Sequence record: OL739525.1
Source of the DNA: Escherichia phage dw-ec
DNA length: 64,000 nt
Strand: one strand, 5' to 3'
The position numbers and the translations under genes were made by a program. This document shows positions 43,788-58,461 of the stretch, piece by piece. How positions within the stretch are numbered: position 1 is the first letter of the stretch; each line of letters begins with the position of its first letter. Under the pieces are notes generated by a model. It was not told where the DNA came from. It worked only from the letters and a program-made list of their open reading frames with translations, and did not search any database.

Positions 43788-44081
43788 ATGATGAACATTA
43801 CTTTAGCAACTAAGAATATTTCTGAAACAATTAACGGTTTTGGTGTGATTGTAGCCTTGCACGGTAACAATGAGAAATGGTTGGCTTCTTTTGAAGAGGA
43901 TCGTCAACACAACATTATTTTAGATGCTCCTATAAAAGTTATGCATATCGTTGGTGAAAGCAAAGTGCTTACTTCCTCCCGTTCAAAAGAACAAATTACA
44001 AATGAATTAGTAAAACTGCTTGACAATGTTCTTAACATGTTTGATAATGCACCCATCGACACAAAACGTGTCTTAATGTGA
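43788..44081 (+). CDS. hypothetical protein
   Basis: 97 aa ORF, first gene of plus early operon. Confidence 0.6.
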   Translation: MMNITLATKNISETINGFGVIVALHGNNEKWLASFEEDRQHNIILDAPIKVMHIVGESKVLTSSRSKEQITNELVKLLDNVLNMFDNAPIDTKRVLM

Positions 44082-44093
44082 AAGGAGAATATA

Positions 44094-44585
44094 ATGGCTT
44101 ACCCTGATTACATTGACGAACGTGCTATGGGTTTCTTCCGTAACTTCTTGGTTGGTCGTTCTCACGGAGACAACGGTTCCAGTTATAAAACAAGCTGGGA
44201 TAGTCAGTGTGGCGCTAAGGCTACCAAAACTTTGAAAATGCCAGGTCGTCCGTTGTGCGCGTATTGTGGTAATGAAGCTTTAGCTCTTCAACCTGGTATT
44301 GAACATGGTGATTATACTATTAAAGGTTACACTTGTGTCTGCAAAGGTGCAATGGACGAGGCGGATTGGGTGAAAGAAAAAGCAGAGATGGAGGAACGTC
44401 ATAAACGAGAAGCTTATGAAATGGAAAAACGTATGCCTGTTCCAGATTTGCAAGTTAAGAAAGATATTGTTGCGAAAATGATGGAAAAAGTCCAGAAAGC
44501 AGAGACGGAAGAAGACCTAAATCGTGCACTGGAAAACTTACGTAATTTTAAAGAAGAAAAAGAGTTGCGTGAGATTATGTGGTAA
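44094..44585 (+). CDS. hypothetical Cys-rich protein
   Basis: 163 aa; AAGGAGAA RBS; C..C...C.C cluster. Confidence 0.6.
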   Translation: MAYPDYIDERAMGFFRNFLVGRSHGDNGSSYKTSWDSQCGAKATKTLKMPGRPLCAYCGNEALALQPGIEHGDYTIKGYTCVCKGAMDEADWVKEKAEMEERHKREAYEMEKRMPVPDLQVKKDIVAKMMEKVQKAETEEDLNRALENLRNFKEEKELREIMW

Positions 44586-44622
44586 GGTATACTATTTCCA
44601 TCAATTAAGAGAGGAGAACCAA

Positions 44623-44910
44623 ATGTATTATTCACAAGACGAAGTAGCAAACATTAAACTGGCAGTTGGCGATCTTATTGTGTCACCTAACTACTATTGG
44701 GATAACACAGACTTGGTTGAAGTAGTAACCTATGTTGGAGTTGAAGGTATTGTGCTCTACACACTAGGTGGAGGTGTTGTTGGGGAAATGGAACGTTATA
44801 CGACAACGAAGAAACTGGTAAGCTCTTATCACATGTTTTTACACCAAGGTTCGGAAGAGTATACAGCTTTCTTGTTGAAATTAGATGCAGATCGGGAGAA
44901 GGCACGATGA
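44623..44910 (+). CDS. hypothetical protein
   Basis: ATG at 44623 with GAGAGGAGAA RBS (track start 44524 rejected). Confidence 0.55.
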   Translation: MYYSQDEVANIKLAVGDLIVSPNYYWDNTDLVEVVTYVGVEGIVLYTLGGGVVGEMERYTTTKKLVSSYHMFLHQGSEEYTAFLLKLDADREKAR

Positions 44911-45263
44911 AAATTGTACACGATGAAATTCAAATAGAAGAAAGTGACCTGATGGATTTGGATGCAGCTTTGGGGAAGGTAATCTATGCAGGAATTAAAG
45001 CCTTCCGTGAGAAGGCAAACAATAGCACGTTTGTCATGATCCCCACTAAACTGATGCGTGTTTTGTATCCAAATAGAAGTGCGCCGTATACAGATGAAGA
45101 AGAGGAGACAGGTAGAAGAGAGTGGTTAAATATTTTAGAAAAGATGGAGAATGCTTTTATTGATAGTGGTAATCCAGAAATCGTGTATGCTGAAGATCAA
45201 AGGAAGGCACGGTTAGAGGGCCGTCTTTTATTCGCTAGTTATTTTGATAATCTTTGGAGCTAA
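44907..45263 (+). CDS. hypothetical protein
   Basis: 118 aa ORF. Confidence 0.55.
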   Translation: MKIVHDEIQIEESDLMDLDAALGKVIYAGIKAFREKANNSTFVMIPTKLMRVLYPNRSAPYTDEEEETGRREWLNILEKMENAFIDSGNPEIVYAEDQRKARLEGRLLFASYFDNLWS

Positions 45264-45265
45264 AT

Positions 45266-45442
45266 ATGTCTGAATTCTTCACAATGGCTTTCTTAGGGAT
45301 CTATCTGATTATTAGTGCTGTTGGCTTAATCATGTCTCTAATAGAGGAAATGGGAATTAAGTGGAATTGTGCATTCGGTATAGCTCTTATGCTCACTCCA
45401 GTTTGGATTTACATTTGCAAATCGGTTGAACTAATTGGTTAA
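45266..45442 (+). CDS. small membrane protein
   Basis: ATG at 45266 with GGAG RBS; two hydrophobic helices. Confidence 0.5.
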   Translation: MSEFFTMAFLGIYLIISAVGLIMSLIEEMGIKWNCAFGIALMLTPVWIYICKSVELIG

Positions 45443-45452
45443 TGGAGGTAAT

Positions 45453-45791
45453 ATGTTTAGTAAAGAAATGAGAGAGGTAATCGCTACTCTGGTAGTTGAT
45501 CATGGTGTTGAAGTTGAGCGTCACGTTTGGAAAGATGAGCCTCCTTTCTTTGATTTGGCATCACGAGCTAAAAGTCACATGAATCTCCTTGAAGATGATA
45601 AGGATTTTATTCTGCGTATGCGTTATGATCGAGAGTTTAGAATTCCTCTTGACACAAATCCTGATGATGTAGTATTGTGGTTGGCAGAGCATTTCGCATT
45701 TAACGCTCTACATGGAAGAAGTTTTGGTAATGAACGTTGGGATACCATTTGTCGTAAACATAATATTGAACCAGAATACGGGAGTATGTAA
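45453..45791 (+). CDS. hypothetical protein
   Basis: ATG at 45453 after GGAGGT. Confidence 0.55.
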   Translation: MFSKEMREVIATLVVDHGVEVERHVWKDEPPFFDLASRAKSHMNLLEDDKDFILRMRYDREFRIPLDTNPDDVVLWLAEHFAFNALHGRSFGNERWDTICRKHNIEPEYGSM

Positions 45792-46042
45792 TGTTAAGCG
45801 TTAAGCCTAAGATGATCAGTGAAGACCAGAAAGATTTCATTTACAAGTGTGGACGAATCTGGAGAGAGTATACCAAGGGTAACGAGGTCGTGGTGGTTAC
45901 TGAACACCAGATTGAAATCTCTGATCTTTTCGGTGATTATTTGCAAGTGATCAAATTAGGCATTGACAGAGGTTTGGTGCAGGTGTTAACATTATCCCAA
46001 GTTGAAGCAGAACACTTAGACAAAATCATTGTCGAGTTCTAA
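45791..46042 (+). CDS. hypothetical protein
   Basis: 83 aa ORF. Confidence 0.55.
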   Translation: MLSVKPKMISEDQKDFIYKCGRIWREYTKGNEVVVVTEHQIEISDLFGDYLQVIKLGIDRGLVQVLTLSQVEAEHLDKIIVEF

Positions 46043-46055
46043 GAGGAGAAAGAAT

Positions 46056-46220
46056 ATGATCTCTTTAGAATCAATAGCTTTTAAGAAAGGGTATACCGCA
46101 GGGTTCAAGTTTGGTATGTTTAATAAAGTAAATCCGTACTGTCCAATGACACACAAAAAGGAATTCGAAGAATGGGAAGATGGATTTTCTAAAGGCTACC
46201 AGGCAAAGGGTTGGTTGTAA
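46056..46220 (+). CDS. hypothetical protein
   Basis: ATG at 46056 with AAGAGGAGAA RBS. Confidence 0.5.
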   Translation: MISLESIAFKKGYTAGFKFGMFNKVNPYCPMTHKKEFEEWEDGFSKGYQAKGWL

Positions 46221-46229
46221 GGAGAGAAT

Positions 46230-46394
46230 ATGATTTTAAACTTCATCATCAATTTGTGTTTGACATTGGGACTACTTTGTGCAATAGTATCCCCTCTGGT
46301 TGGTGAATATTGTTCTGAACTGGCGATGTTTATAGTTCTTGGTGCGGCTATTGTTAATATGTTTGTCGCTGCGATTTGTATGTTGTGGGAATAG
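46230..46394 (+). CDS. small membrane protein (54 aa)
   Basis: Not in ORF track; ATG after GGAGAGAA; two hydrophobic segments. Confidence 0.4.
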   Translation: MILNFIINLCLTLGLLCAIVSPLVGEYCSELAMFIVLGAAIVNMFVAAICMLWE

Positions 46395-46405
46395 GAGGGA
46401 AGTTT

Positions 46406-46762
46406 ATGAAAAAACTAATCTTAGCCACATTGCTGGCTACCGTAAGCTTCACCACTTACGCTCAAAAATTTGTAGCAGTTAAAACGGATATTGGTAAAGA
46501 TGTTGTGATCACAGGCAACAAGTTTTACTATACATCTGGAAATGGTATTCTAGAAGAGTGCAAAGATGTTGAGGCATATACAGGAAAAGAAGATAACACG
46601 GAACGTCCTTTTTATTCGATTATAGCTACTTGCAAAAATGAAATAGTAGCTATTAAACAATACAAAGATGCCCCTGGAGGAGAATACTTATTAGTCAAGA
46701 ATATTAAGAGTGAAAAAACTGCAAAGTTTACAGTAATTATTTTAAAAGGAGAAACGTTCTAA
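46406..46762 (+). CDS. secreted protein
   Basis: ATG at 46406 with AGGAGGGA RBS; signal peptide MKKLILATLLATVSFTTYA. Confidence 0.6.
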   Translation: MKKLILATLLATVSFTTYAQKFVAVKTDIGKDVVITGNKFYYTSGNGILEECKDVEAYTGKEDNTERPFYSIIATCKNEIVAIKQYKDAPGGEYLLVKNIKSEKTAKFTVIILKGETF

Positions 46763-47901
46763 TGAAATACACTATTTTTGGAGATGTAGCTGTTGTAAAT
46801 AAGGAATATGGCGTTGAAGCTAATAAACTTCCTGCTGGAGTTTGGGTTGTCAACTGCGATCCGCACGGTAACTACTCTTTAGTGCGTGGCGAAAGTTTCT
46901 CTCTTCCGAACACTCTTTATGGGGAAACTAAAGATCGCGCCGCACATGTTATTAAAACATTTGCTCGTCGTAGTAAAGAAGGTAAAAATACTGGGGTGTT
47001 ACTGACAGGGACAAAGGGCAGTGGTAAGACGATGTTAGCTAAACTGATTAGCATGTCCCTAATGTCCACAGAAGGTTTAGGTATTCCAACCATTTTGGTG
47101 ACACAGCCTTACACAGATGCTGGATTCTTAGAATTTATGAGTAAAATTACAGATCGTGCTGTTGTTTTATTTGACGAGTTTGATAAAGTGTACGCTAAGA
47201 AAGAAGATCAGGAAGCACTGTTGACCTTGTTGGATGGAACAGGAAGTGGGAATAAACTTTACATCCTCACTAAAAATAGTGGCTATATCTCGGAATATTT
47301 TGTAAACCGTCCTAGTCGTATCTATTACAGTTTCAATTACGATAAACTGTCTAGTGAAACTATGTTAGATTACTTGGATAAGAACTTGGTAAATAAAAAG
47401 CACGTAGATAACTTCCAACGTTTATGGGATGTTAGCACAGAGTTGTCTTTCGATGTTATTCAAGGTATTGTAGAAGAATTGAATTTCTATCCAAAAATGA
47501 CTTTTAAAGAATGTCTTGAAATGATGGGTATTTCTTTAGGGAACGATGCTAAATGGAATGTGGCTTCTATCGTAGCTAATGGCAAAACCTTGAAGGTGAA
47601 TTGGATCAATAACTGGCACGACTTCACCCCTACTAAGTTTTTGTCGGGTGCTTGTTCCCTGAACATCTATCTACAAAGTTTGAAAGATGATGAAGTGGAA
47701 GCAATGGAAACCAACAGTTATGTTATCCTGGATGAAGATGGTGATCCACATATTGATCTATGTGCAACGGCTGATGGTCTAACTTGTGATCTGATTGAAG
47801 GTGGTAAGATTCTGGTTATGAGCACTACACCAGGAAACACTCTGCGAGTGGTGCTGGAGCCTGTAACACAACGTTCCACCACACTGGGTAGCGTGTTCTA
47901 A
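46762..47901 (+). CDS. AAA+ ATPase
   Basis: 379 aa; Walker A GTKGSGKT and Walker B VVLFDEFDK. Confidence 0.7.
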   Translation: MKYTIFGDVAVVNKEYGVEANKLPAGVWVVNCDPHGNYSLVRGESFSLPNTLYGETKDRAAHVIKTFARRSKEGKNTGVLLTGTKGSGKTMLAKLISMSLMSTEGLGIPTILVTQPYTDAGFLEFMSKITDRAVVLFDEFDKVYAKKEDQEALLTLLDGTGSGNKLYILTKNSGYISEYFVNRPSRIYYSFNYDKLSSETMLDYLDKNLVNKKHVDNFQRLWDVSTELSFDVIQGIVEELNFYPKMTFKECLEMMGISLGNDAKWNVASIVANGKTLKVNWINNWHDFTPTKFLSGACSLNIYLQSLKDDEVEAMETNSYVILDEDGDPHIDLCATADGLTCDLIEGGKILVMSTTPGNTLRVVLEPVTQRSTTLGSVF

Positions 47902-47917
47902 TAATTTGAGATTTATT

Positions 47918-47945
47918 AAACCCGCTTCGGCGGGTTTTGTTATAT
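47918..47945 (+). terminator. rho-independent terminator
   Basis: AACCCGC-ttcg-GCGGGTT followed by TTGTTAT. Confidence 0.65.
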
Positions 47946-47975
47946 TGGTTTTAGTTTAATAGAGAGGATCGTTAG

Positions 47976-49202
47976 GTGAGACGTAAATCAATAGAAGAAT
48001 ATATGGAAGAGTGCGCACCGATAGCGACTGAGAGGGGGATCATCATCCTCGGCACGTATGGAGAGGATAAGGGAAGTAAGACTAAAATGATCCTACGGGG
48101 AAGAGATTGCAATCATGAGTGGAATACCACGACTTTTAACCATTTTAAAAGGGGTAGTGGTTGTCCTGTTTGTGCAAAAGAAATGGAAAGTAGAGGTAAA
48201 GCTAAAAAGAAAAACTTAGAAACCTGTCTTATAGAGTGTCAACCTTTAGCACAGGAAAGAGATATTGAGATTATTGGGGTTGTGAAACCTTTTAAAGGTG
48301 TACGGACTAAAATGATCAACCGTTGTAAAGTTTGTTATCATGAATGGAATACTTGCAGTATTGCCAATTTCAAGAGAGGTTCGGGATGCCCGAAATGCAA
48401 AGCTGAGAAAATAGGAGAATTAGGCAAGTGTGCGGTTATCCCAGACGATCAGCACATACAAGATTTCATGAATACTGGCGCTTTCCAACCAGGAACCATC
48501 TTCATCAATACAGGGGAACGTACTGGAAAGAGCGACAGTATTTGGTGTATAAAATGTCCTATTTGCTCATACGACGAATATGTACAAGCTGGAGTATGTG
48601 ATGGTAAGTTTTATTCTACAAGGGGCAGTCTTAAAAACGGGAGTCTCGCTTGTCGTTGTTCTACACGTTATGTGTTTAGCGATCAGCAGTTAACATACCG
48701 CATGAGAAAGGAGTTGCAGAAAAAAGATTTGATTTTTATCGAATGGGTAGGCAAACCGTCTGTAAGATTAGGTAAGTTTAAATATGGATGTAAGAAACAT
48801 GGGGTACAAATAGGACGTGCCAGTAGTTTGTTAAATCATGGCACTGGTTGTCCGCAATGTGCTAACCAGACACAACAACAATGTTACATTAACCACATTC
48901 ATGATGAACAAGGTATTCTCTGTGCTTTGAAATTTGGAATTGCCAATAATAGTGATCGCCGTATCAAAGAACAAAATAGTCGTAATGTGTTTACTATGAA
49001 ACAGGTCCAAGTGTGGCACTTCCCTACTGCGAAGCAGTGCAAAGATGCAGAGAAGCGTTGTAAGCGTGTCCTTCACACGGAAGCAGTGAGCAAATATGCT
49101 ATGCCAGATGGCTACACAGAGACAGTGGAGTTATCTTGCATGGCATCAATACAAAACATTTATAAACTTTATGGTGGAACATTACAGGAGGAAACATGTT
49201 AG
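47976..49202 (+). CDS. zinc-ribbon repeat protein, possible GIY-YIG-like nuclease
   Basis: 408 aa, GTG start; repeated C.HEWNT...F.RGSGCP.C modules; C-terminal GILCALKFGIANNSDRRIKEQN weakly GIY-YIG-like. Confidence 0.5.
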   Translation: MRRKSIEEYMEECAPIATERGIIILGTYGEDKGSKTKMILRGRDCNHEWNTTTFNHFKRGSGCPVCAKEMESRGKAKKKNLETCLIECQPLAQERDIEIIGVVKPFKGVRTKMINRCKVCYHEWNTCSIANFKRGSGCPKCKAEKIGELGKCAVIPDDQHIQDFMNTGAFQPGTIFINTGERTGKSDSIWCIKCPICSYDEYVQAGVCDGKFYSTRGSLKNGSLACRCSTRYVFSDQQLTYRMRKELQKKDLIFIEWVGKPSVRLGKFKYGCKKHGVQIGRASSLLNHGTGCPQCANQTQQQCYINHIHDEQGILCALKFGIANNSDRRIKEQNSRNVFTMKQVQVWHFPTAKQCKDAEKRCKRVLHTEAVSKYAMPDGYTETVELSCMASIQNIYKLYGGTLQEETC

Positions 49203-49561
49203 TTGACGTTCAAATTATGCGCAACGAAAGAATGGACTTCTTTGAAGCAGTAGAGAAACATCTGATCAGATGGGACTATGAATTTGTTCCTGCTGGATGT
49301 GGACCAGTAGAGCATTTAGCGGAAGACGACGATGTATACATGATCATTCGTCAAGTGTACCAGACAGACCAGTGTGAAGAAACTCCCGAACTGATTTTGT
49401 TTGAGTGTAAAGATCTTGCAAAATATTTTGACTATGGTGGAAAAGAGGGTCATAATCTCTCCAGATACAATAAACGTCTACTTATCTTAGACTACATGCG
49501 GAACAATAAACACAAACTCATCGACGCAGACGCAGTTTATGGCTACTGGTGGATGGACTAA
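49196..49561 (+). CDS. hypothetical protein
   Basis: 121 aa ORF. Confidence 0.55.
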   Translation: MLVDVQIMRNERMDFFEAVEKHLIRWDYEFVPAGCGPVEHLAEDDDVYMIIRQVYQTDQCEETPELILFECKDLAKYFDYGGKEGHNLSRYNKRLLILDYMRNNKHKLIDADAVYGYWWMD

Positions 49562-49574
49562 CAAAGGAGAAATT

Positions 49575-49763
49575 ATGGCACGTTTAGCAGATCATGAAAT
49601 CTTTAAACCTATTCTGAACCATTATAATGAACTTAAAGCAGTGTTGGATTGTTATAAAGAGGATGAAGAACGCTTGGAAGTCAATCTTAAGATAGTTCTG
49701 ATGAAAGCTTTTCAAGACGGGCAAGCTGAAGTCTTAAGAGGTATGAAAAATGCGAATAACTGA
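49575..49763 (+). CDS. hypothetical protein
   Basis: ATG at 49575 with AAGGAGA RBS. Confidence 0.5.
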   Translation: MARLADHEIFKPILNHYNELKAVLDCYKEDEERLEVNLKIVLMKAFQDGQAEVLRGMKNANN

Positions 49764-50283
49764 TGAATATGTATTCTTCTTTTCACATAAAGATGTGTTT
49801 AGCAATTGGTACATTGCACCATTCACAGAGACGGAACCAGGGTACAGTGAGACTTTCTGTTGTGTAGAGCAATACATGATGTGGCGTAAGGCTTTGCTGT
49901 TCAAGGATCAGGTAATCGCAGCAGCTATCCTTGATCACTCAATGAAGCGAGACGACGAGAAGGGACAGGCATACTACAAGCGTATGGGTCGAGCGGTGTC
50001 TGGTTTTAATAATGACATGTGGGAAGAGTACCGAGAGCGTATCGTAATGCGAGGCTTATGCTTGAAGTATACACAGAACCCTGATCTTTACTCTGACTTG
50101 CGACTGTACCAATTCAAAACGTTCGTTGAGGCGAGTCCTTATGATAAGGTTTACGGAATTGGAATGGGTATGTACGAACCAGGGGTGCTTAATCCTGCCA
50201 ACTGGAAAGGGCAGAATCTTTTAGGTAAATATCATAATAAACTGATCGAAATACTTTTCCCAGACAAAATACCGCAAAGATGA
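49750..50283 (+). CDS. NADAR-domain protein (YbiA-like)
   Basis: 177 aa; FFFSHKDVFSNWY, CVEQYMMWRKALLF and KYTQNPDL..L segments fit the NADAR/DUF1768 fold family. Confidence 0.6.
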   Translation: MRITDEYVFFFSHKDVFSNWYIAPFTETEPGYSETFCCVEQYMMWRKALLFKDQVIAAAILDHSMKRDDEKGQAYYKRMGRAVSGFNNDMWEEYRERIVMRGLCLKYTQNPDLYSDLRLYQFKTFVEASPYDKVYGIGMGMYEPGVLNPANWKGQNLLGKYHNKLIEILFPDKIPQR

Positions 50284-50535
50284 TATTTGTGATATTTTAA
50301 CTTTTTTCATTTTTAGAACAAAGGTGTCACTTTGTAGCACAGAAATAAGGCTCCTACAGCACCGTAGAGAGCCTGTTATTTTGTCCTATACAAACCCTTA
50401 TCTTTTTCAGTTTGCATCACTAAGATTCGATCTAAGTGGGTTCCTGAAGGTCTACTAATAAGATTAAAGGTTATATCAAATTCCCACTATCCATTATCTC
50501 AAAAATCCCTCAAATTATTTAAACTTTTTAAGAAT

Positions 50536-50720
50536 TTACAAAAGTGAAAGTTGAAAACCAAAATTTAAAGTTTAGGAAAATTATCTTAAAATGTTAGATA
50601 CAAAACAAAACTCAAAAGTCAAGGAAAATTTTAAAAATTTTGCGCGCCCACAGTATTTAAAGTTTTTTTGCTTTTACAAAAATGAAAGTACAAAAGCAAA
50701 ATTTAAAGTTTACAAAAATT
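50536..50720. repeat. AT-rich direct repeats (two ~47-bp copies plus partial copies)
   Basis: 50536..50582 and 50674..50720 about 83% identical (TTACAAAA.TGAAAGT...AAAATTTAAAGTTTA..AAAATT); ATTTAAAGTTT occurs three times. Confidence 0.7.
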
Positions 50721-50731
50721 TTTATGCAGGT

Positions 50732-50752
50732 GAGAATGAGAAGAGTTCTCAT
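50732..50752. promoter_or_regulatory. palindromic operator-like site (ATGAGAA-gag-TTCTCAT)
   Basis: Perfect 7-bp inverted repeat; same half-site family as the Fur-box-like elements. Confidence 0.4.
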
Positions 50753-50762
50753 ATGGAAATGC

Positions 50763-50783
50763 AAATGATAATGATTCGCATTT
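50763..50783. promoter_or_regulatory. Fur-box-like element
   Basis: AAATGATAATGATTCGCATTT, partial match to GATAATGATAATCATTATC. Confidence 0.4.
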
Positions 50784-50820
50784 AAGTTTATAAATGAGAT
50801 TGATTCTTATTTAATAAGGT

Positions 50821-50850
50821 AAATGATAATCATTCTCATTTAGAGAATGA
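50821..50850. promoter_or_regulatory. Fur-box-like element with TCATTCTC-attta-GAGAATGA palindrome
   Basis: AATGATAATCATTCTC matches 15 of 16 positions of the Fur-box core AATGATAATCATTATC. Confidence 0.5.
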
Positions 50851-51098
50851 CGCGCAGGGGCGGTGTTTGTCTCGCGCTCCCGTGTCCCCTCGCCATGTAA
50901 TAAGAATAACAGATCCAGCCAGGAAAGCAAGCGATTATTTTATCTTTACATTTCTTTACAAATATATAGCGCCCAGCCTACCGGCGATCAACCTTCCAAC
51001 CAGCGCCCTGGTATGTTAGCCCCGCCTTTACGCCGTGGGGTGGCGCTTCCTCTTCTGTATGTAAAACAGTATAAGCCCGATCCCTGGGCTTGTCAAGA

Positions 51099-51365
51099 TT
51101 ATTTTTTGTTTTCTTGCCAGGATAGGACACCTAACCAAAAATACATATCGCCCCGCGCCCCTGGTGGTATCTTGCTTTCCCCGCCGCCACTGCAAGCCCA
51201 TAGATAACCATTTGCGAACGTATCAAAATGATCTATCTCTTCCACCTTATGATCGCCCAGGTTGAGAACGGTTTCAACCTTTAAGCCCGTTGCGCTTGCT
51301 ACCTGGTGCACCGTGCCGCCTTGCCAGCCCAATGAGTGCATAAGGTGTAATGTAGTAGTTGTCAT
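51099..51365 (-). CDS. hypothetical protein in GC-rich island
   Basis: 88 aa ORF with protein-like composition; surrounding 50860..51560 noticeably GC-richer than the rest of the window. Confidence 0.4.
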   Translation of the reverse strand: MTTTTLHLMHSLGWQGGTVHQVASATGLKVETVLNLGDHKVEEIDHFDTFANGYLWACSGGGESKIPPGARGDMYFWLGVLSWQENKK

Positions 51366-51474
51366 GGTGTCGCCCTTTCTTTGTTGTGCGCCCTGGTTGG
51401 CGCGGTAGAAAGATGATAGCCTTTTCCTTTATATATAGCAAGCAAAAAGAAAATAAAAAAGATTGAAAAAGTGG

Positions 51475-51503
51475 TTGACGTTCCTCACCTGGTAGCGTAG
51501 TAT
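51475..51503 (+). promoter_or_regulatory. sigma70-like promoter (TTGACG-17-TAGTAT)
   Basis: Upstream of 51639..51836. Confidence 0.4.
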
Positions 51504-51638
51504 TCATCTTGTCGAGGGGGGCGCGGCACAACGACAATAAAAAACAGGAGGGCGCAATGTAGGACGGGCAAAGGTGAGGATCTCCATAATCCACCGTCAA
51601 CCAACAAAAAACATCATTCATCACCTGGAGTTAAAATC

Positions 51639-51836
51639 ATGGCAACATTGCACATAGTAGCGAAAGCAGGACAAATCAGCGTCGTGGTAAACGGTTTTAC
51701 TGAGTTCAGTCATCCCCAGGATGATCATGAAACGGTTTTATCTTTCATTGATTCACTGTTAGAAATGGGAGTAATTACAGAAGACCAGCACGCTACAAAA
51801 TGCAAACGCGTTAATCAGATTGCAGGAATAGAATAA
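51639..51836 (+). CDS. hypothetical protein
   Basis: 65 aa ORF. Confidence 0.5.
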   Translation: MATLHIVAKAGQISVVVNGFTEFSHPQDDHETVLSFIDSLLEMGVITEDQHATKCKRVNQIAGIE

Positions 51837-51842
51837 AAAGTA

Positions 51843-51904
51843 TTGACAACAACCAACAACCTGATAAGATGTATCACATAGGGCGGCGGAATGGTCCACC
51901 GCTC
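51843..51904 (+). promoter_or_regulatory. promoter-leader cassette P1 (TTGACA-16-TAAGAT + leader stem-loop)
   Basis: -35 51843..51848, -10 51865..51870, then GTATCACATAGGGCGGCGGAATGGTCCACCGCTC hairpin and AGAAGAGAG leader. Confidence 0.7.
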
Positions 51905-51927
51905 ACAACAGAAGAGAGATTATAATC

Positions 51928-52200
51928 ATGGCATCATATAGCGCAACAATGATCGTAGCTGGCACCACTGGTAAACCTATGAGCGGTGGCGGATCTTTCG
52001 CAAATATCAACATTGACGGGCGTTTATCCCTGGACGCAGCGATCACCGTGGCGCGGGAAACATTTAAGAAAGAATGTAAATTCAATAAACAAGATTATCT
52101 CGGTTTTGCTATTGAAAAAACCGCGCGTTTTGTTGATTATAAAAGCCCAAAAATGGTTGATACTACACTAAAAGCGCAAGATGTAGCGTTTTTGCTTTAA
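51928..52200 (+). CDS. hypothetical early protein
   Basis: 90 aa ORF downstream of P1. Confidence 0.55.
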   Translation: MASYSATMIVAGTTGKPMSGGGSFANINIDGRLSLDAAITVARETFKKECKFNKQDYLGFAIEKTARFVDYKSPKMVDTTLKAQDVAFLL

Positions 52201-52203
52201 GGC

Positions 52204-52259
52204 TTGACATTAACGAATAATTTGTTAATATGTTACATAAAGCGGGAATAGTTCCCGCT
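52204..52259 (+). promoter_or_regulatory. promoter-leader cassette P2
   Basis: TTGACA, TAATAT, hairpin GCGGGAA-tag-TTCCCGC. Confidence 0.65.
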
Positions 52260-52276
52260 ATTTGTAAGGTGGTAGA

Positions 52277-52534
52277 ATGTTTTACATCAAATTAAAAGGT
52301 CACGTGATCGCGTTCAAAGATAACGCTTTTTACAGATTAGCAAAATATGCGTTAATACATCCCCACTATGTTTATATAAGGGGGCGTGATGAAATAAATA
52401 TCTTTGATCAAACAACATGCGAAAACATCGAGATCCGCAAGGTTGGCGTACGTGATTATCGTACATCTTTCTACCCTTGCAAGGATTCAGCAAGTCTTTT
52501 CAAAGTATGCCAATTGTTGAAAAAAGGTGGTTAA
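52277..52534 (+). CDS. hypothetical early protein
   Basis: 85 aa ORF. Confidence 0.55.
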   Translation: MFYIKLKGHVIAFKDNAFYRLAKYALIHPHYVYIRGRDEINIFDQTTCENIEIRKVGVRDYRTSFYPCKDSASLFKVCQLLKKGG

Positions 52535-52535
52535 T

Positions 52536-53093
52536 ATGGGCCGCGAATATGTGATCCAGTCTTGGGTAAAACATGAAGCAGATGATCCGCGCATCATTCC
52601 CGATCATCTTATCGATGAATCCACGGGATATAGCGGTGAGCAAATAGGTAACAGATTAGCACGTAGTAACGGCAACGTAAAAGCGCGTTATGTGCGCCCT
52701 GGTTGGCTGGCAAATGGTAATGCTGATTTATCCAGTGCGGAAGATGCGAGCGACGGCGCGAAAGATAATCCTTTGTACAAAGTTGATCCGGCTTTTCGTG
52801 TCCTGGATGAATACCCCAGCAAGATAGCGGCGCTCGATCAGGCCCTGGAAAGTAAGCGCATCACCTGGACCGCTTACAACATGGCAAAAAACGTACTTGA
52901 TGGTAAATTGATTCAAGCTGAAAGAAAATTAGCCAAAATTGCAGCCATAGCCCAGGAGGAAGACGAGGAGACAACGGAAGAGGAAGAGTACGAAGAGATC
53001 CCGCCGTTGTTGTGTGTTGATGCTTTTCCTGATTATCAGCCGACAGAGGAAGAAAAAAGGATCGCACTAGAAAACTTTGAAAATAGTCTTTGA
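52536..53093 (+). CDS. hypothetical early protein with acidic C-terminal region
   Basis: ATG at 52536 after AGGTGG; E-rich segment. Confidence 0.55.
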   Translation: MGREYVIQSWVKHEADDPRIIPDHLIDESTGYSGEQIGNRLARSNGNVKARYVRPGWLANGNADLSSAEDASDGAKDNPLYKVDPAFRVLDEYPSKIAALDQALESKRITWTAYNMAKNVLDGKLIQAERKLAKIAAIAQEEDEETTEEEEYEEIPPLLCVDAFPDYQPTEEEKRIALENFENSL

Positions 53094-53148
53094 CATATCG
53101 CCGCCACTGGCATAATATTTACCACGTAGGGCGGCAATGGTGCCGCTC
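53090..53148 (+). promoter_or_regulatory. promoter-leader cassette P3
   Basis: TTGACA-17-TAATAT, hairpin GCGGCA-atgg-TGCCGC. Confidence 0.65.
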
Positions 53149-53175
53149 ATAGTAAAATTATGCAAGAGGTTTGCA

Positions 53176-53271
53176 ATGATTAATAAAGAAAATAGCTTGA
53201 CGGTTGGAACGATTAACGCTATCATTTTCGCCGTTCCATTTTGGGTTGTAGTAGCGGCTATTATTTTCTAA
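53176..53271 (+). CDS. small hydrophobic peptide (31 aa)
   Basis: Not in ORF track; ATG after AAGAGG; MINKENSLTVGTINAIIFAVPFWVVVAAIIF; lies between cassettes P3 and P4. Confidence 0.35.
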   Translation: MINKENSLTVGTINAIIFAVPFWVVVAAIIF

Positions 53272-53280
53272 AAAATATTC

Positions 53281-53341
53281 TTGACAACGTTTTTTAATCT
53301 GATAAGATGTATCACATAGGGCGGCGGAATACTTCCCCGCC
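53281..53341 (+). promoter_or_regulatory. promoter-leader cassette P4
   Basis: TTGACA-16-TAAGAT, GTATCACATAGGGCGGCGGAATACTTCCCCGCC. Confidence 0.65.
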
Positions 53342-53362
53342 AAAACAAAAAAGGGTAACACA

Positions 53363-53725
53363 ATGAGCAAGCAAATCAGTACTATCATGTTTAATCTGGT
53401 ATCTTTCCGCGATGATATGAAAAATTTACCACGTGAAACGGTTGATATTCATGTTTCAGCTTATCGCGCCCTTATTGACATGTTACCGCTAAAACGTGAT
53501 CAACATGCCGCTAATATGATGCTTAATGCTATGCTTAAAAAGATGATTCAAACGGATCTCACCCTGGCATATGAGTATCAAGGGCGCTTATATGCAACTT
53601 ACAACAAAGCGGTACCTGGTTTGGGAAGTACCGAAGAGTTGCACGGCTTAAACCTGGATCAAAACACTTGGGATAGTATGCGCCGCGTTATGGTATGGGC
53701 CGAAAGCGGTAAAATTTACGAATAA
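53363..53725 (+). CDS. hypothetical early protein
   Basis: 120 aa ORF. Confidence 0.55.
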   Translation: MSKQISTIMFNLVSFRDDMKNLPRETVDIHVSAYRALIDMLPLKRDQHAANMMLNAMLKKMIQTDLTLAYEYQGRLYATYNKAVPGLGSTEELHGLNLDQNTWDSMRRVMVWAESGKIYE

Positions 53726-53731
53726 AAACGG

Positions 53732-53788
53732 TTGACACTGTTTAAACTTCTGGTATAGTTTATCACGTAGGGCGGCAATGGTGCCGCC
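53732..53788 (+). promoter_or_regulatory. promoter-leader cassette P5
   Basis: TTGACA-16-TATAGT, hairpin GGCGGCA-atgg-TGCCGCC. Confidence 0.65.
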
Positions 53789-53808
53789 AACAATAAAAGG
53801 TTAACATC

Positions 53809-53988
53809 ATGGCTATCATTGCAAAAACTGAGATTATAGGTTTAGATTCGATCCTCCTGGCTTATGAGGAAACTTTAAAAATGTATATAGTGACCTATGG
53901 TGATTATGTGCGTGAATACGAATACATTGATCTTGCTTTCGAATGTTACATTCGCCAGGTCAATAAAGCCTATAACGATTATCGTTAA
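53809..53988 (+). CDS. hypothetical early protein (59 aa)
   Basis: Not in ORF track; starts MAI like neighbouring cassette genes; hand-translated. Confidence 0.45.
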   Translation: MAIIAKTEIIGLDSILLAYEETLKMYIVTYGDYVREYEYIDLAFECYIRQVNKAYNDYR

Positions 53989-54007
53989 AAGTTTTAGTCT
54001 TATACTA

Positions 54008-54060
54008 TTGACAATGAGTGATAGTATAAGCATAATAACTTTTATCGGGAATACTTCCCA
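54008..54060 (+). promoter_or_regulatory. promoter-leader cassette P6
   Basis: TTGACA-17-CATAAT, hairpin GGGAA-tac-TTCCC. Confidence 0.6.
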
Positions 54061-54085
54061 CTAACCAAAAAGAGAGAGTGACACC

Positions 54086-54451
54086 ATGGCTATTAATATC
54101 AATGTTTCCGCTTATGCTACCCTGGCTAACACGGCTAAAATTGAATTATCCAGCATTGAGGCGGTGCATATTAGCGCCCGTCGCTGGTTTCAACGGTCCT
54201 ACGGTAACACATATTTTTCTTTAATGGTTGACGTTGAGATCGGCGGTAAACTGATCGAGGTGGTTAACGTTCCGTTTCAATATGGCTATGGTGATCATTT
54301 TGATACCGTCGCCCTGGAAGAATTTAGCAAGGTTATCAACCTTGAGGGCAAGGAATTTTCACGCGGCGCGTATCTTTCCCGTTTTTGCCGTGACAATGGG
54401 ATCACTGTATACAGTCATGCAAGCGATGTAAAACGTAAAAAAGATTTATAA
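54086..54451 (+). CDS. hypothetical early protein
   Basis: 121 aa ORF. Confidence 0.55.
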   Translation: MAININVSAYATLANTAKIELSSIEAVHISARRWFQRSYGNTYFSLMVDVEIGGKLIEVVNVPFQYGYGDHFDTVALEEFSKVINLEGKEFSRGAYLSRFCRDNGITVYSHASDVKRKKDL

Positions 54452-54456
54452 AAGCA

Positions 54457-54517
54457 TTGACAGCACGAATAAAAAGAGTAAACTGTATTACATAGAGAGC
54501 GGGAATAGTTCCCGCCT
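54457..54517 (+). promoter_or_regulatory. promoter-leader cassette P7
   Basis: TTGACA-16-TAAACT, GTATTACATAGAGAGCGGGAATAGTTCCCGCC. Confidence 0.65.
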
Positions 54518-54539
54518 CATTCAAAGAGAGATTATCATC

Positions 54540-54779
54540 ATGGCTATTACTAAAACTTACAACGGTCACAAAAACAAAACTCACTGGAATGTAAGCCTTT
54601 GGATTAATAACGATGAATCGTTATACCGGTTGGCCCAAGATTTTATTAACGCTAATGCTAATCGTAATGATGCGGCGCGGGATATGATGCTTTTTCTGGA
54701 ACAAACTGGACAAGATAAAACGCCAGACGGTTTCAAATATAGCACTACTGCGATCCGTGCCGCGATGGTTGGAATGTAA
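54540..54779 (+). CDS. hypothetical early protein
   Basis: 79 aa ORF. Confidence 0.55.
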   Translation: MAITKTYNGHKNKTHWNVSLWINNDESLYRLAQDFINANANRNDAARDMMLFLEQTGQDKTPDGFKYSTTAIRAAMVGM

Positions 54780-54788
54780 TAAAAACAG

Positions 54789-54849
54789 TTGACAACGTTT
54801 AAAATTAGTGTAAGATGTATCACATAGGGCGGGAAGTGGTTTCCCGCCA
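54789..54849 (+). promoter_or_regulatory. promoter-leader cassette P8
   Basis: TTGACA-16-TAAGAT, hairpin GGCGGGAA-gtggt-TTCCCGCC. Confidence 0.65.
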
Positions 54850-54869
54850 AAACAGAGAGATTAAAGATT

Positions 54870-55097
54870 ATGGCTATCAATATTGTTCGCGTATCCGGCA
54901 CCGTTGGCACTTCCCAGGTCATTGCAGTTGTAACAAACAAAAAGATTAATGATGTATGTGAGATCTTGAATAAGTGGGCTGTTGCTAATTTTGGGGAATA
55001 TGCAAGCGTCGAGTACATCGAATCCTACCAGGTGCCAACCATCAGCCTAACCGATCTCAACGTTGATCGCCTGTTATGCCTGGATGAATTAATCTGA
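54870..55097 (+). CDS. hypothetical early protein
   Basis: 75 aa ORF. Confidence 0.55.
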   Translation: MAINIVRVSGTVGTSQVIAVVTNKKINDVCEILNKWAVANFGEYASVEYIESYQVPTISLTDLNVDRLLCLDELI

Positions 55098-55106
55098 AAA
55101 AGATTG

Positions 55107-55164
55107 TTGACACGGGAAAGAAAAAGAGTAAACTGTATTACGTAGGGCGGCAATAGTGCCGCTC
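55107..55164 (+). promoter_or_regulatory. promoter-leader cassette P9
   Basis: TTGACA-16-TAAACT, hairpin GCGGCA-atag-TGCCGC. Confidence 0.65.
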
Positions 55165-55187
55165 ACAACAGAAGAGAGATTATCACG

Positions 55188-55400
55188 ATGGCTAATATCC
55201 GCACACTGTTAAAAAATGCAAGTCAAGTTTTATTTTCTGATCACGATCATTTTAATAAAGATATTACAGGCGTGAAGAATATCAAAGATGTAAAAAGTGT
55301 TATGGGTATATATTGCAATGTTAAACGTGTTGGAACGTTCGGTGATAAAGTATTGTATCAATCAGGTGATTACAATTTTACTTTGACGATTATTTCATAA
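55188..55400 (+). CDS. hypothetical early protein
   Basis: 70 aa ORF. Confidence 0.55.
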   Translation: MANIRTLLKNASQVLFSDHDHFNKDITGVKNIKDVKSVMGIYCNVKRVGTFGDKVLYQSGDYNFTLTIIS

Positions 55401-55406
55401 AACCGC

Positions 55407-55468
55407 TTGCAATACTGCAAAAATAAAGTAAACTGTATTACATCAAGGCGGCGGAATGGTCCACCGCC
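55407..55468 (+). promoter_or_regulatory. promoter-leader cassette P10
   Basis: TTGCAA-16-TAAACT, hairpin GGCGGCGGAATGGTCCACCGCC. Confidence 0.6.
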
Positions 55469-55492
55469 TAACAAAGAGAAGAGGAAAACATC

Positions 55493-55660
55493 ATGATCAC
55501 TTTCGCTACCCGTGAAGCCGCTCGCAACGTTGCCCGTAAAGTTAACGCCGCCAACCTGGGCGCTACGTTTAAAGCACCTGTAAAAGATGAATCAGGAAAA
55601 TGGATCTTCCCTGGTCTGCGTCACGCTGATAAGCTAGGCACTTTAAGCCTTAAAAAATAA
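55493..55660 (+). CDS. hypothetical early protein (55 aa)
   Basis: Not in ORF track; MITFATREAARNVARKV...; shares MITFA start with 55735..55956. Confidence 0.45.
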   Translation: MITFATREAARNVARKVNAANLGATFKAPVKDESGKWIFPGLRHADKLGTLSLKK

Positions 55661-55663
55661 TCG

Positions 55664-55701
55664 TTGACTTTTCGTTATAGCGCCCATTATAAGGCGCTAT
55701 A
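55664..55701 (+). promoter_or_regulatory. promoter-like element P11 with distinct hairpin
   Basis: TTGACT then AGCGCC-cattataa-GGCGCT hairpin overlapping the -10 region. Confidence 0.4.
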
Positions 55702-55734
55702 GAGAAGAGAAACCACTACTAACAAGGAAACATC

Positions 55735-55956
55735 ATGATCACTTTCGCTATTGTCGCCGTTGTTGCTGGTCAGGTTTACGTAAACGATACATTCACCACA
55801 GAAGACAAGGCCGCAGGAGACATAACCGCCGTTTACAATGAGTGCAAGGCAGTAGAAAGAATGTTAGCGCCTTGTATGCTAATGAGTGAACGCCAGGACG
55901 GGATAACAGTATTTACTAACATTGAAACAGGGTACCAAATGGTAGTAACAAAATAA
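55735..55956 (+). CDS. hypothetical early protein
   Basis: 73 aa ORF. Confidence 0.5.
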   Translation: MITFAIVAVVAGQVYVNDTFTTEDKAAGDITAVYNECKAVERMLAPCMLMSERQDGITVFTNIETGYQMVVTK

Positions 55957-55959
55957 AGC

Positions 55960-56018
55960 TTGACACGGATTTAATTTTCAGTAAACTGTTACACGTAGAG
56001 CGGGAATAGTTCCCGCTC
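55960..56018 (+). promoter_or_regulatory. promoter-leader cassette P12
   Basis: TTGACA-17-TAAACT, hairpin GCGGGAA-tag-TTCCCGC. Confidence 0.65.
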
Positions 56019-56035
56019 AAAAAGAGAGAAAGACC

Positions 56036-56389
56036 ATGAAAGCACAAAATGCAATTAAAGAGTACATCCTTGCCGCTATCGATTTTAATGATTACGGTAT
56101 TACAACCGAAAAAGAGAAGATCGCGGAATTGATGCGCCGTTTTAATTCCGAGTACTGGTACCCTGATAACCAATCACGTTTTAATTATAGTATTGTTAAA
56201 GCACTTGCATCATGGTTACAAGGTTTGCCATCAGATATCAATATCGCTTTCGAATATTGGGAAATTGATCGCCTGTTAACATCCTGGGGATACATTAAAG
56301 AGAATAGCAGCGATGATAAAATCCAACGAGAAAGGGAAAATTATTGGCTTTATATTGCAGGCGTGATCCTTGCTTGCTCTTATGAATGA
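56036..56389 (+). CDS. hypothetical early protein
   Basis: 117 aa ORF. Confidence 0.55.
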   Translation: MKAQNAIKEYILAAIDFNDYGITTEKEKIAELMRRFNSEYWYPDNQSRFNYSIVKALASWLQGLPSDINIAFEYWEIDRLLTSWGYIKENSSDDKIQRERENYWLYIAGVILACSYE

Positions 56390-56395
56390 TAAACC

Positions 56396-56449
56396 TTGAC
56401 AATTTTACAAAACAGTTTAAATTAATAATATAGCGGCAATGGTACCGCT
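56396..56449 (+). promoter_or_regulatory. promoter-leader cassette P13
   Basis: TTGACA, AT-rich -10 region, hairpin GCGGCA-atgg-TACCGC (one mismatch). Confidence 0.5.
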
Positions 56450-56468
56450 CATATAAAGAGGAAACAAA

Positions 56469-56615
56469 ATGAATACATCTAATCGCGCAGAAAAAATTCA
56501 ATCTTCCAAGATCCGCAAGGCCTGGAATGAGGAAGTGATCCGCAAAGGCGACAAGCGCAATAAAACAAAGCGCGGGAAGAGTGACAAATATAATTGGATG
56601 GATTTAGAGAATTAA
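56469..56615 (+). CDS. small basic protein (48 aa)
   Basis: Not in ORF track; ATG after AAGAGGAAA; Lys/Arg-rich. Confidence 0.4.
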   Translation: MNTSNRAEKIQSSKIRKAWNEEVIRKGDKRNKTKRGKSDKYNWMDLEN

Positions 56616-56621
56616 CATAAC

Positions 56622-56650
56622 AAGGGCGCACCAAGCGCCCTTTCTTTTTA
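56622..56650 (+). terminator. rho-independent terminator
   Basis: GGGCGC-accaa-GCGCCC followed by TTTCTTTTT; near-identical copies at 61964 and 62529. Confidence 0.7.
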
Positions 56651-56670
56651 CATGTAGAGGATAAACAAAA

Positions 56671-56856
56671 ATGACTTTAAACGAGCTTAAAACAGCGTAC
56701 AGCGCAACATTAAAAATAGCCGTGCGTTACCGTGACGAATACGGTTTTATTGCGCAGGGCGTGATCCTGGGCTTTTCTGACGATGGTTTGATCTATGTTG
56801 ATGCACATTATAACAAGGTTAAACCGGAAAACGTTATTAGCATAAAATATCTTTAA
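56671..56856 (+). CDS. hypothetical early protein
   Basis: 61 aa ORF. Confidence 0.5.
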   Translation: MTLNELKTAYSATLKIAVRYRDEYGFIAQGVILGFSDDGLIYVDAHYNKVKPENVISIKYL

Positions 56857-56862
56857 AAACGG

Positions 56863-56922
56863 TTGACACCATAACCGGACCTGTTAAACTGTATTACATC
56901 AGGCGGGGAATAGTTCCCCACC
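56863..56922 (+). promoter_or_regulatory. promoter-leader cassette P14
   Basis: TTGACA-16-TAAACT, hairpin GGGGAA-tag-TTCCCC. Confidence 0.65.
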
Positions 56923-56941
56923 ATACAAAAAGGTAAATATT

Positions 56942-57148
56942 ATGATCACCGCAAAACAAGAAAAAATCATTATCGACGTTGCAGCCGTTGCCGCTATCGC
57001 TATTATTGGATCTTATTATGATACCCGTTTCCCGTCGGCTATGCATGAGGTCGCCGCCGTTGCATCAGTTGGCGTACTGTTTTACGTTGGTAAACGCTAT
57101 TTATCACCAATGATTAACAAGCTGACACCGTGGAAAAATAAAGGTTGA
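56942..57148 (+). CDS. small membrane protein
   Basis: 68 aa; hydrophobic segment IIIDVAAVAAIAIIG. Confidence 0.5.
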   Translation: MITAKQEKIIIDVAAVAAIAIIGSYYDTRFPSAMHEVAAVASVGVLFYVGKRYLSPMINKLTPWKNKG

Positions 57149-57201
57149 TCCTGTTTTACATTGTGTTATAGTTATCGTGTAGGGCGGCAATGGTGCCGCG
57201 C
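57145..57201 (+). promoter_or_regulatory. promoter-leader cassette P15
   Basis: TTGATC-16-TATAGT, hairpin GCGGCA-atgg-TGCCGC. Confidence 0.55.
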
Positions 57202-57219
57202 CCCTTTGAGGATGCAATC

Positions 57220-57504
57220 ATGAGTAAAGCTAACACCGTGCTAATGTTTTCCCTGATTAATGATCTCGCTTACTTGTCCAACATGACGCAGGAGGGTAAC
57301 ACATTAACGGCAACATTCACCAATAAGCTTGACCGAGTGATCATCATCTCACTGAAAACAGTTAGTAAAGGCTTTTACTCGTTAGCTTATCATTGGATCA
57401 CCGATACCGATGAGACAAGCCAGGACTATAGCGCCCCTTTCCCTGAATCAATGGCACGGGAGATCATCGCCGCCGTTATAAATGATGGTTTGTTTACTGC
57501 ATAA
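57220..57504 (+). CDS. hypothetical early protein
   Basis: ATG at 57220 after GAGGA; track start 57190 lies inside the leader hairpin. Confidence 0.5.
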   Translation: MSKANTVLMFSLINDLAYLSNMTQEGNTLTATFTNKLDRVIIISLKTVSKGFYSLAYHWITDTDETSQDYSAPFPESMAREIIAAVINDGLFTA

Positions 57505-57521
57505 ATAATTTAGAAAAAGGC

Positions 57522-57578
57522 TTGCAATCATTTTGAGATAGTGTATATTTAATTCATAGGGCGGCGGGAATAGTTCCC
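57522..57578 (+). promoter_or_regulatory. promoter-leader cassette P16
   Basis: TTGCAA, TATATT, hairpin GGGAA-tag-TTCCC. Confidence 0.55.
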
Positions 57579-57601
57579 AAAGCAAACGAGAGGATTACAC
57601 G

Positions 57602-57721
57602 ATGAGCAAGTACACAGTAGAATACACGGTAGAAAATCCGGCAGTATCCGAAGGTAAAAAGATGACATTTGCCATCAGTATAATCGCTTTCGTTGTCACT
57701 ATCTTATCAATCATCTTATAA
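57602..57721 (+). CDS. small membrane peptide (39 aa)
   Basis: Not in ORF track; ATG after GAGAGGA; C-terminal TM helix FAISIIAFVVTILSIIL. Confidence 0.35.
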   Translation: MSKYTVEYTVENPAVSEGKKMTFAISIIAFVVTILSIIL

Positions 57722-57731
57722 GGTGCACACC

Positions 57732-57893
57732 ATGAAAACAACAGACATTATCAAAGAGATCGCCCTTGCCGCTGGCGTTGAAGTCGAGGAAGTGATCGCG
57801 CTCAATCTTACAGAAAACGATCTGCGCAACTATGAAGCGGAAAGCGTGAAAGCAAGCGGCGCGGTCCTGGTATATGATCCGGCTAACAAGTAA
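57732..57893 (+). CDS. hypothetical early protein
   Basis: ATG at 57732 after AAGGTG. Confidence 0.45.
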   Translation: MKTTDIIKEIALAAGVEVEEVIALNLTENDLRNYEAESVKASGAVLVYDPANK

Positions 57894-57902
57894 GGGGATA
57901 AC

Positions 57903-58013
57903 ATGAATCCGAAAGATATGCAAGCATGGAAAGGGTACGACGATCTAAGCGCCTTGCGCAATAAGTCAAGCCGTAACCTTAGACGGTTGGAAGCAAAGAA
58001 AAAGAAAAAATAG
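57903..58013 (+). CDS. small basic protein (36 aa)
   Basis: Not in ORF track; ATG after AAGGGGA; Lys-rich tail. Confidence 0.3.
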   Translation: MNPKDMQAWKGYDDLSALRNKSSRNLRRLEAKKKKK

Positions 58014-58014
58014 T

Positions 58015-58071
58015 TTGACAAGTCCGCCTAGTCTGATAATATGTATCTTGTAGGGCGGCAATGGTGCCGCT
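58015..58071 (+). promoter_or_regulatory. promoter-leader cassette P17
   Basis: TTGACA-16-TAATAT, hairpin GCGGCA-atgg-TGCCGC. Confidence 0.65.
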
Positions 58072-58091
58072 CACAAGAAGAGAGAAAAATC

Positions 58092-58376: not shown

Positions 58377-58377
58377 T

Positions 58378-58440: not shown

Positions 58441-58461
58441 ACAACAGAAGAGAAACAAATC

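Follow-up and report, generated by a model that had tools for sequence, protein, structure and literature searches.

The locus raises the question of whether a phage gene with a NADAR domain, standing at the end of a gene cluster, encodes an enzyme that removes ADP-ribose from DNA, and whether it is complemented by a macrodomain gene elsewhere in the same genome. The window (i.e., the whole stretch of DNA analysed, 64,000 nucleotides from Escherichia phage dw-ec) represents a Phapecoctavirus, a phAPEC8-like myovirus of the subfamily Stephanstirmvirinae. Positions 49000-51500 were 94-96% identical to UP17, ukendt, phAPEC8 and many other phages.

The NADAR gene and its neighbourhood

A preliminary description, made from the sequence alone, had placed a NADAR-domain gene at 49750-50283 and at the end of an early operon. 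The ORF coordinates were exact. The position at the operon end was a reasonable reading, given that the gene was the last member of a co-directional cluster on the plus strand (43788-50283), which started at a divergent intergenic region, and was followed by a terminator-like hairpin. The features of the locus were as follows:

43788-49561, plus strand: rest of the co-directional cluster (small ORFs, AAA ATPase, CapR gene and orf121), given as context only
46762-47901, plus strand: AAA ATPase, cluster member
47976-49202, plus strand: CapR/treble-clef 'endonuclease', cluster member
49196-49561, plus strand: orf121, cluster member
49575-49763, plus strand: small upstream gene of 62 aa, phrog_22330, from its ORF and a PHROG match
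49734-49739, plus strand: AAGAGG ribosome-binding site, 10 nt 5' of the NADAR ATG, as read from the sequence
49750-50283, plus strand: NADAR coding sequence (AdfN^Bas60-type), ATG start, 177 aa, from its ORF, Pfam, PDB alignment, structure and ortholog
approximately 50339-50385, plus strand: intrinsic-terminator-like hairpin with a U-rich tail (RNA fold of -18.6 kcal/mol, z = -3.2)

The order of the cluster was conserved in phAPEC8, UP17, Mt1B1_P17 and PaulScherrer, and an ARNold terminator was annotated in phAPEC8 at the position homologous to the hairpin. The 62-aa gene was annotated in phAPEC8, UP17 and Mt1B1_P17, and was absent from Justusliebigvirus, for which PaulScherrer was the genome checked. 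Its stop and the NADAR start overlapped by 14 nt, which suggests that translation of the two genes may be coupled.

Early timing of the cluster can only be presumed. In an array at 51.5-61.3 kb, a promoter with a 5' hairpin recurred as a characteristic element, of which the plus strand of the cluster contained no good copy. That array (approximately 51557-61242, plus strand) comprised small genes, many of which followed a TTGACA-N17-TAAGAT-like promoter with a conserved 5' hairpin (GGCGGCAATGGTGCCGC). The element, with its strong sigma70-like promoter, occurred at least 16 times across the array, against approximately three expected for the core motif, and its promoters were those annotated as 'PHIRE' promoters in phAPEC8. 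No tRNA genes were found in the window.

Downstream of the NADAR gene, the most conserved DNA of the neighbourhood lay within a gap (50284-51638) that is largely without annotated genes. The segment 50629-51599 showed 85% nucleotide identity with Justusliebigvirus, compared with approximately 66-72% for flanking genes, and 96-100% identity within Phapecoctavirus. A direct repeat of 72 nt (50511-50582 and 50649-50720) lay in an AT-rich segment of the gap; there was also a GC-rich part without a convincing ORF, and a minus-strand ORF of 88 aa (51099-51365) that was annotated in some relatives. Rfam returned nothing credible, either for the whole window at gathering thresholds or for 50250-51900 at E<=1. 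The conserved segment may serve as an origin or a regulatory hub, or may encode an RNA. At 50764-50840, a Fur-box-like palindrome (AATGATAATCATTCTCATT) occurred three times in tandem with a spacing of 29 nt, and further copies occurred at 62763, 63590 and 63769, in the ORF-poor region at 62.6-64.0 kb. In total there were nine such sites at <=3 mismatches, where 0.07 were expected by chance, and the best copy agreed with the E. coli Fur consensus at 16/19 positions.

Domain, active site and ortholog of the NADAR protein

The profile search proposed in the preliminary description matched the protein to Pfam PF08719 (E = 7.1e-34, 117.9 bits against a gathering score of 35.1) between profile positions 3-154 of 163, corresponding to residues 11-161 of 177. 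PHROG phrog_1017 was matched also (E = 2.4e-49), while the sole sequence match in the PDB was 8bau, the NADAR of P. nicotianae (E = 3.7e-13). An AlphaFold2 model based on an alignment of 30 homologs was produced with a pLDDT of 96.4 and a pTM of 0.90, and it retrieved NADAR structures only at E<=0.001, namely 8bau (TM 0.81) and E. coli YbiA (2b3w, TM 0.70).

The catalytic and ADP-ribose-contacting residues of the family were defined by Schuller et al. (PMC11543638); these are a catalytic Glu-Lys pair (E43 and K50 in P. nicotianae, E88 and K95 in E. coli C7), together with a contacting Arg, an acidic residue and an Asp. In the phage protein, E40, K47, R95, E127 and D132 aligned to the catalytic or contact residues of 8bau, and E40, K47, E127 and D132 were invariant across the 30 homologs of the family alignment. 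One contact differed, in that W133 of P. nicotianae was replaced by Tyr135, as it is in AdfN^Bas60, and a clade-specific variable loop was present at approximately residues 63-72. By profile, fold and catalytic residues, the protein is a NADAR superfamily enzyme.

A tblastn search with the protein matched 718 phage records, including Phapecoctavirus (80-99% identity), Justusliebigvirus (approximately 57%), PVP-SE1-like phages and large phages of Staphylococcus, Listeria, Enterococcus and Bacillus; approximately 70 database records carried a NADAR that was >=80% identical. The Justusliebigvirus counterpart is bas60_0111 (QXV83846.1) of phage PaulScherrer, which is Bas60 in the BASEL collection, and the gene was also present in EmilieFrey (Bas61) and JohannJBalmer. 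The product of bas60_0111 was named AdfN^Bas60 by Johannesman et al. (Nat Commun 2025;16:1598; PMC11825919). It matched PF08719, as did the window protein, and the two were 58% identical over their full length (E = 7e-68), with the catalytic residues, the Tyr-for-Trp replacement and the clade-specific insertion in common. Both loci had the order ATPase, CapR 'endonuclease' and NADAR, and then a conserved gap of approximately 1.3 kb. Differences were nevertheless evident: 42% of residues were not shared, the window protein lacked six consecutive residues that AdfN^Bas60 has in its N-terminal beta region, and, relative to this other genus, two additional small genes lay 5' of the window NADAR. 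Sequence and gene order together identify the gene as a syntenic ortholog of bas60_0111.

It was the ortholog that gave weight to the role against DarT-like toxins put forward in the preliminary description, since AdfN^Bas60 is an experimentally established anti-DarT1 factor. When expressed in uninfected E. coli, it neutralises DarT1; on DarTG1 hosts it enabled RB69, T5 and Bas25 to regain full titre, and against DarTG2 it was without effect. These data come from ectopic expression only (PMC11825919). By analogy with the ortholog and with the biochemistry of the family, the window protein is expected to be a guanine-ADP-ribose glycohydrolase, and its neutralisation of DarT1, its specificity for guanine-ADPr and its inactivity on thymine-ADPr are predicted on the same grounds.

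In the proposed mechanism, 49750-50283 encodes a NADAR of the AdfN^Bas60 type, a stand-alone ADP-ribosyl glycohydrolase that most likely cuts the N-glycosidic bond between ADP-ribose and guanine N2 on phage DNA during infection. Removal of ADP-ribose would reverse modification of the DarT1 type, as imposed in DarTG1 abortive infection, and allow replication to go on. In a weaker step, the unlinked macrodomain gene would probably supply the complementary activity on thymine-ADPr (DarT2), as AdfM does in T4. It was considered probable that the NADAR protein erases guanine-ADPr against DarT1 in the manner of AdfN^Bas60, with the macrodomain gene as its likely complement.

The macrodomain gene and its neighbours

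The preliminary description had referred to a macrodomain gene in a different operon. Such a gene was present approximately 20 kb from the NADAR gene and on the opposite strand, being part of a long leftward strand of replication and nucleotide-metabolism genes. The relevant features were:

29675-30148, minus strand: macrodomain gene, 157 aa, SCO6735/DarG/TARG1 class, from Pfam, PDB, PADLOC and comparison with T4
30162-30989, minus strand: ComF-like PRTase (PF15610, E = 2.2e-41), annotated alike in EmilieFrey
30982-31638, minus strand: HAD-like hydrolase, from a weak HAD match, annotated alike in EmilieFrey

The Pfam Macro profile was matched at 22.3 bits, barely above its gathering score of 22. 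Similarity to individual structures was found with SCO6735 (5e3b, E = 2.5e-12), the macrodomain of Thermus DarG (5m31, E = 1.7e-6) and TARG1 (4j5q, E = 2.8e-6). DarG was the sole PADLOC match (E = 5.6e-10), as it was for T4 Tk.4, and Tk.4 itself was 34% identical to the window protein over 144 residues (E = 7e-21). Like Tk.4 and SCO6735, the protein is an ALC1-like/TARG1-class macrodomain; it lacks the C-terminal DarT-binding domain of DarG2. The catalytic Lys of DarG (K80) and TARG1 (K84) was replaced by Gln83, as in Tk.4 and SCO6735 (Gln85), and N26 and Q83 corresponded to N27 and Q85 of SCO6735. The latter enzyme cleaves thymidine-linked ADP-ribose on DNA, for which Gln85 and Asn27 are essential (PMC9411070), and SCO6735, DarG2 and TARG1 are listed together as reversing DarT2 thymine-ADPr (table in PMC12945103). 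Furthermore, Tk.4 has been named AdfM and protects T4 against DarTG2, so that T4 pairs a NADAR directed against DarTG1 (AdfN) with a macrodomain directed against DarTG2 (AdfM; bioRxiv 10.1101/2025.11.20.689424).

The neighbourhood of the macrodomain gene admits another interpretation. Its start lay 14 nt past the PRTase stop, with the PRTase and HAD genes directly upstream, and the order on the minus strand was HAD, ComF-like PRTase, Macro, a small ORF and TerC, with SprT-like, TelA, vWA-TerF-like and TerD genes downstream. Anantharaman et al. 2012 and Iyer et al. 2021 (PMC7824862) reported Ter systems of phages that include a PRTase and a HAD protein. It is possible, though doubtful, that the macrodomain protein is a component of such a Ter/PRTase/HAD module, with a phosphoribosylated 'nucleoside-like' product as its substrate, in which case it would not complement the NADAR protein at all. 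Its place inside this run of genes, in an order (HAD-PRTase-Macro-Ter) that was the same in Justusliebigvirus, agrees with such a role. The replacement of the DarG/TARG1 catalytic Lys and a Pfam score only just at the cut-off count against the anti-DarT2 reading. However, the residues for SCO6735-type catalysis on thymine-ADPr were conserved, and the validated homolog, T4 AdfM, has no Ter, PRTase or HAD neighbours. The link is not general either, given that Macro homologs were present in approximately 2980 phage records and the PRTase (as a PRTase-HAD pair) in 156.

The complementarity of NADAR and macrodomain is supported by the T4 precedent of AdfN and AdfM and by the homology with Tk.4, and in this comparison the window pair appears as a mirror of the T4 pair; the Ter/PRTase/HAD setting would allow the macrodomain another substrate. 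An anti-DarT2 role for the macrodomain protein is likely on these comparisons, but not secure.

As a separate observation, the region 21565-31638 (minus strand) constituted a fairly complete phage-borne Ter-type system, resembling the Ter systems of some jumbo phages (PMC7824862).

Allele divergence, other substrates and comparison with known systems

Comparison of Phapecoctavirus genomes showed that nucleotide identity fell to 64-90% per 100-nt window in the interior of the NADAR ORF, compared with 96-100% on both sides. Within the genus, the NADAR gene had a dS of 0.56-1.26 (i.e., approximately 0.6-1.3), compared with 0.02-0.13 in two flanking genes, the ATPase and orf121. Values of dN/dS for the NADAR gene were 0.06-0.09 (about 0.07), which indicates purifying selection. 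Amino-acid differences were clustered at residues 52-72, including the clade-specific insertion. This restriction of divergence to the interior of the NADAR ORF, among genomes that were otherwise near-identical, is the new detail of the present analysis. The pattern looks as if old alleles had been exchanged by recombination while being under purifying selection, and it hints at selection for allele diversity.

These data raise the prospect that the gene is an allele cassette swapped by recombination, which could reflect selection for alleles that differ, e.g., in substrate range (G-ADPr, C-ADPr or RNA-ADPr) or in the evasion of host factors such as AdfN sensors or inhibitors; were this so, selection on the alleles would exceed the picture of a toxin-independent eraser. 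As a separate part of the same proposal, the macrodomain protein might have its function in the Ter/PRTase/HAD module and not in countering DarT2. The proposal as a whole was regarded as unlikely.

The other hypervariable patch lay in the CapR gene (47976-49202, plus strand), which encodes a protein of 408 aa with four CapR repeats, a treble-clef zinc finger and a weak MUG113 (T5orf172-like) domain, and is annotated as 'endonuclease'. Nucleotide identity in its N-terminal two-thirds was 43-77% between otherwise near-identical genomes.

The substrate of the NADAR protein might also be something other than DNA. Iyer et al. 2022 argued that NADAR, Macro, SLOG and Nudix proteins of phages degrade signals or toxins, and reported a co-occurrence of the NADAR and Macro domains in DNA viruses that exceeds chance (PMC9503650). 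Accordingly, the protein might act on small immune signals or toxins derived from ADP-ribose (cADPR variants or ADPr-phosphates) or on ADP-ribosylated RNA, with the macrodomain protein acting on other ribosyl linkages. It is known that NADARs remove G-ADPr from RNA too, and that both the NADAR and YbiA families act on C-ADPr (PMC12945103). Against this, AdfN^Bas60 alone, without phage, neutralises DarT1, which is a DNA-guanine ADP-ribosyltransferase (PMC11825919), and no small-molecule substrate has been demonstrated for the AdfN^Bas60-type clade. A wider range of substrates could, in any case, coexist with a role on DNA instead of replacing it, and an exclusive action on such substrates seems quite improbable. 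When 52 further window proteins were scanned with Pfam, no ADP-ribose-related families (ART, Nudix, SLOG, Sir2 or NAMPT) were returned.

A housekeeping function like that of YbiA, destroying damaged or excess intermediates of the riboflavin pathway, was considered very improbable: the protein does carry the YbiA-type Glu (E127) and scored 110 bits against a cut-off of 73.7 on TIGR02464 ('riboflavin biosynthesis intermediates N-glycosidase', NCBIfam), but the proven anti-DarT1 factor AdfN^Bas60 was its equal on that profile (109.4 bits), so TIGR02464 cannot separate the two functions, while YbiA (2b3w) gave no sequence match even at E<=10 where the non-YbiA NADAR 8bau did, the Bas60 clade falls outside YbiA according to Johannesman et al., the scanned window proteins included no riboflavin-pathway families, and YbiA is itself published to hydrolyse G-ADPr in vitro. 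The name given to the ortholog in several GenBank records, 'GTP cyclohydrolase II / COG3236', would accord with this function; the 'GTP cyclohydrolase II' part looks like a mis-transfer from COG3236/'ribA/ribD-fused' naming and not like evidence of such an activity.

With the reading of an AdfN^Bas60-type guanine-ADPr eraser retained, the gene acquires a likely function as an anti-DarTG1 DNA de-ADP-ribosylase, whereas most of the Phapecoctavirus records examined label it 'hypothetical protein' or, wrongly, 'GTP cyclohydrolase II'. Since several Phapecoctavirus phages have been used or proposed for therapy, their infectivity on E. coli carrying DarTG is of practical relevance. The finding is correct and mostly known, as publications of 2024-2025 cover the biology of both the ortholog and the T4 pair, and the concept itself has likewise been published. 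What the window adds is a myovirus lineage unrelated to T4 with the same set of NADAR and macrodomain, the NADAR having been acquired independently; this supports DNA ADP-ribosylation as a widespread selective pressure on phages.

Among known systems, T4 AdfN (gp30.3) is comparable in being a stand-alone phage enzyme of the NADAR superfamily that acts against DarTG1, as proposed for the window protein. Kinship between the two was tried and rejected, as BLASTP gave E = 2.5 and gp30.3 belongs to PF08010 (Phage_30_3), the window protein to PF08719. T4-type AdfN has His in the place of Glu127. AdfN^T4 is efficient only in T-even infection, possibly through a preference for hydroxymethylated DNA, and it did not neutralise DarT1 in uninfected cells (PMC11825919). 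Repeated acquisition of NADARs by phages is the published view, with which the lack of similarity to T4 AdfN and Glu127 in place of His or Asp agree.

DarG1, the antitoxin linked to DarT1 (e.g., in E. coli C7), belongs to the same superfamily and presumably shares the removal of ADP-ribose from guanine N2. Equivalents of its E88 and K95 were conserved in the window protein, while its third catalytic position is Asp (D171 in E. coli C7) rather than Glu127. A toxin-antitoxin module of the DarG1 type was rejected for the locus: a toxin gene and an N-terminal extension were lacking, and Glu stood where DarG1 has Asp. Pfam identified no ADP-ribosyltransferase family in the NADAR cluster, the immediate neighbours of the gene being the 62-aa ORF and the terminator.

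Homologs nominally from bacteria were closest at approximately 41-47% identity (L009 4001-4486; L011 4001-4480). Two of these 'bacterial' homologs (P0090 and P0073) were located in phage- or prophage-like or giant-phage-like contigs, beside a Gp3-like gene or unannotated runs, and such contexts are uninformative on cellular partners. The clade to which the window protein belongs may be largely phage-borne.

The NADAR of P. nicotianae (8bau) was the best match in both structure and sequence and has the E/K/R/E/D active site in common with the window protein, although they are only 28% identical; the latter is distinguished by a 7-residue insertion at residues 64-72 and by the change of Trp to Tyr at 135. 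The family of stand-alone NADARs to which 8bau belongs, with the sigma70-linked NADAR of E. coli and SCO5665 among its bacterial members, clears DNA and RNA of G-ADPr as well as C-ADPr (PMC12945103). Those enzymes are cellular, whereas the NADAR of the window is viral.
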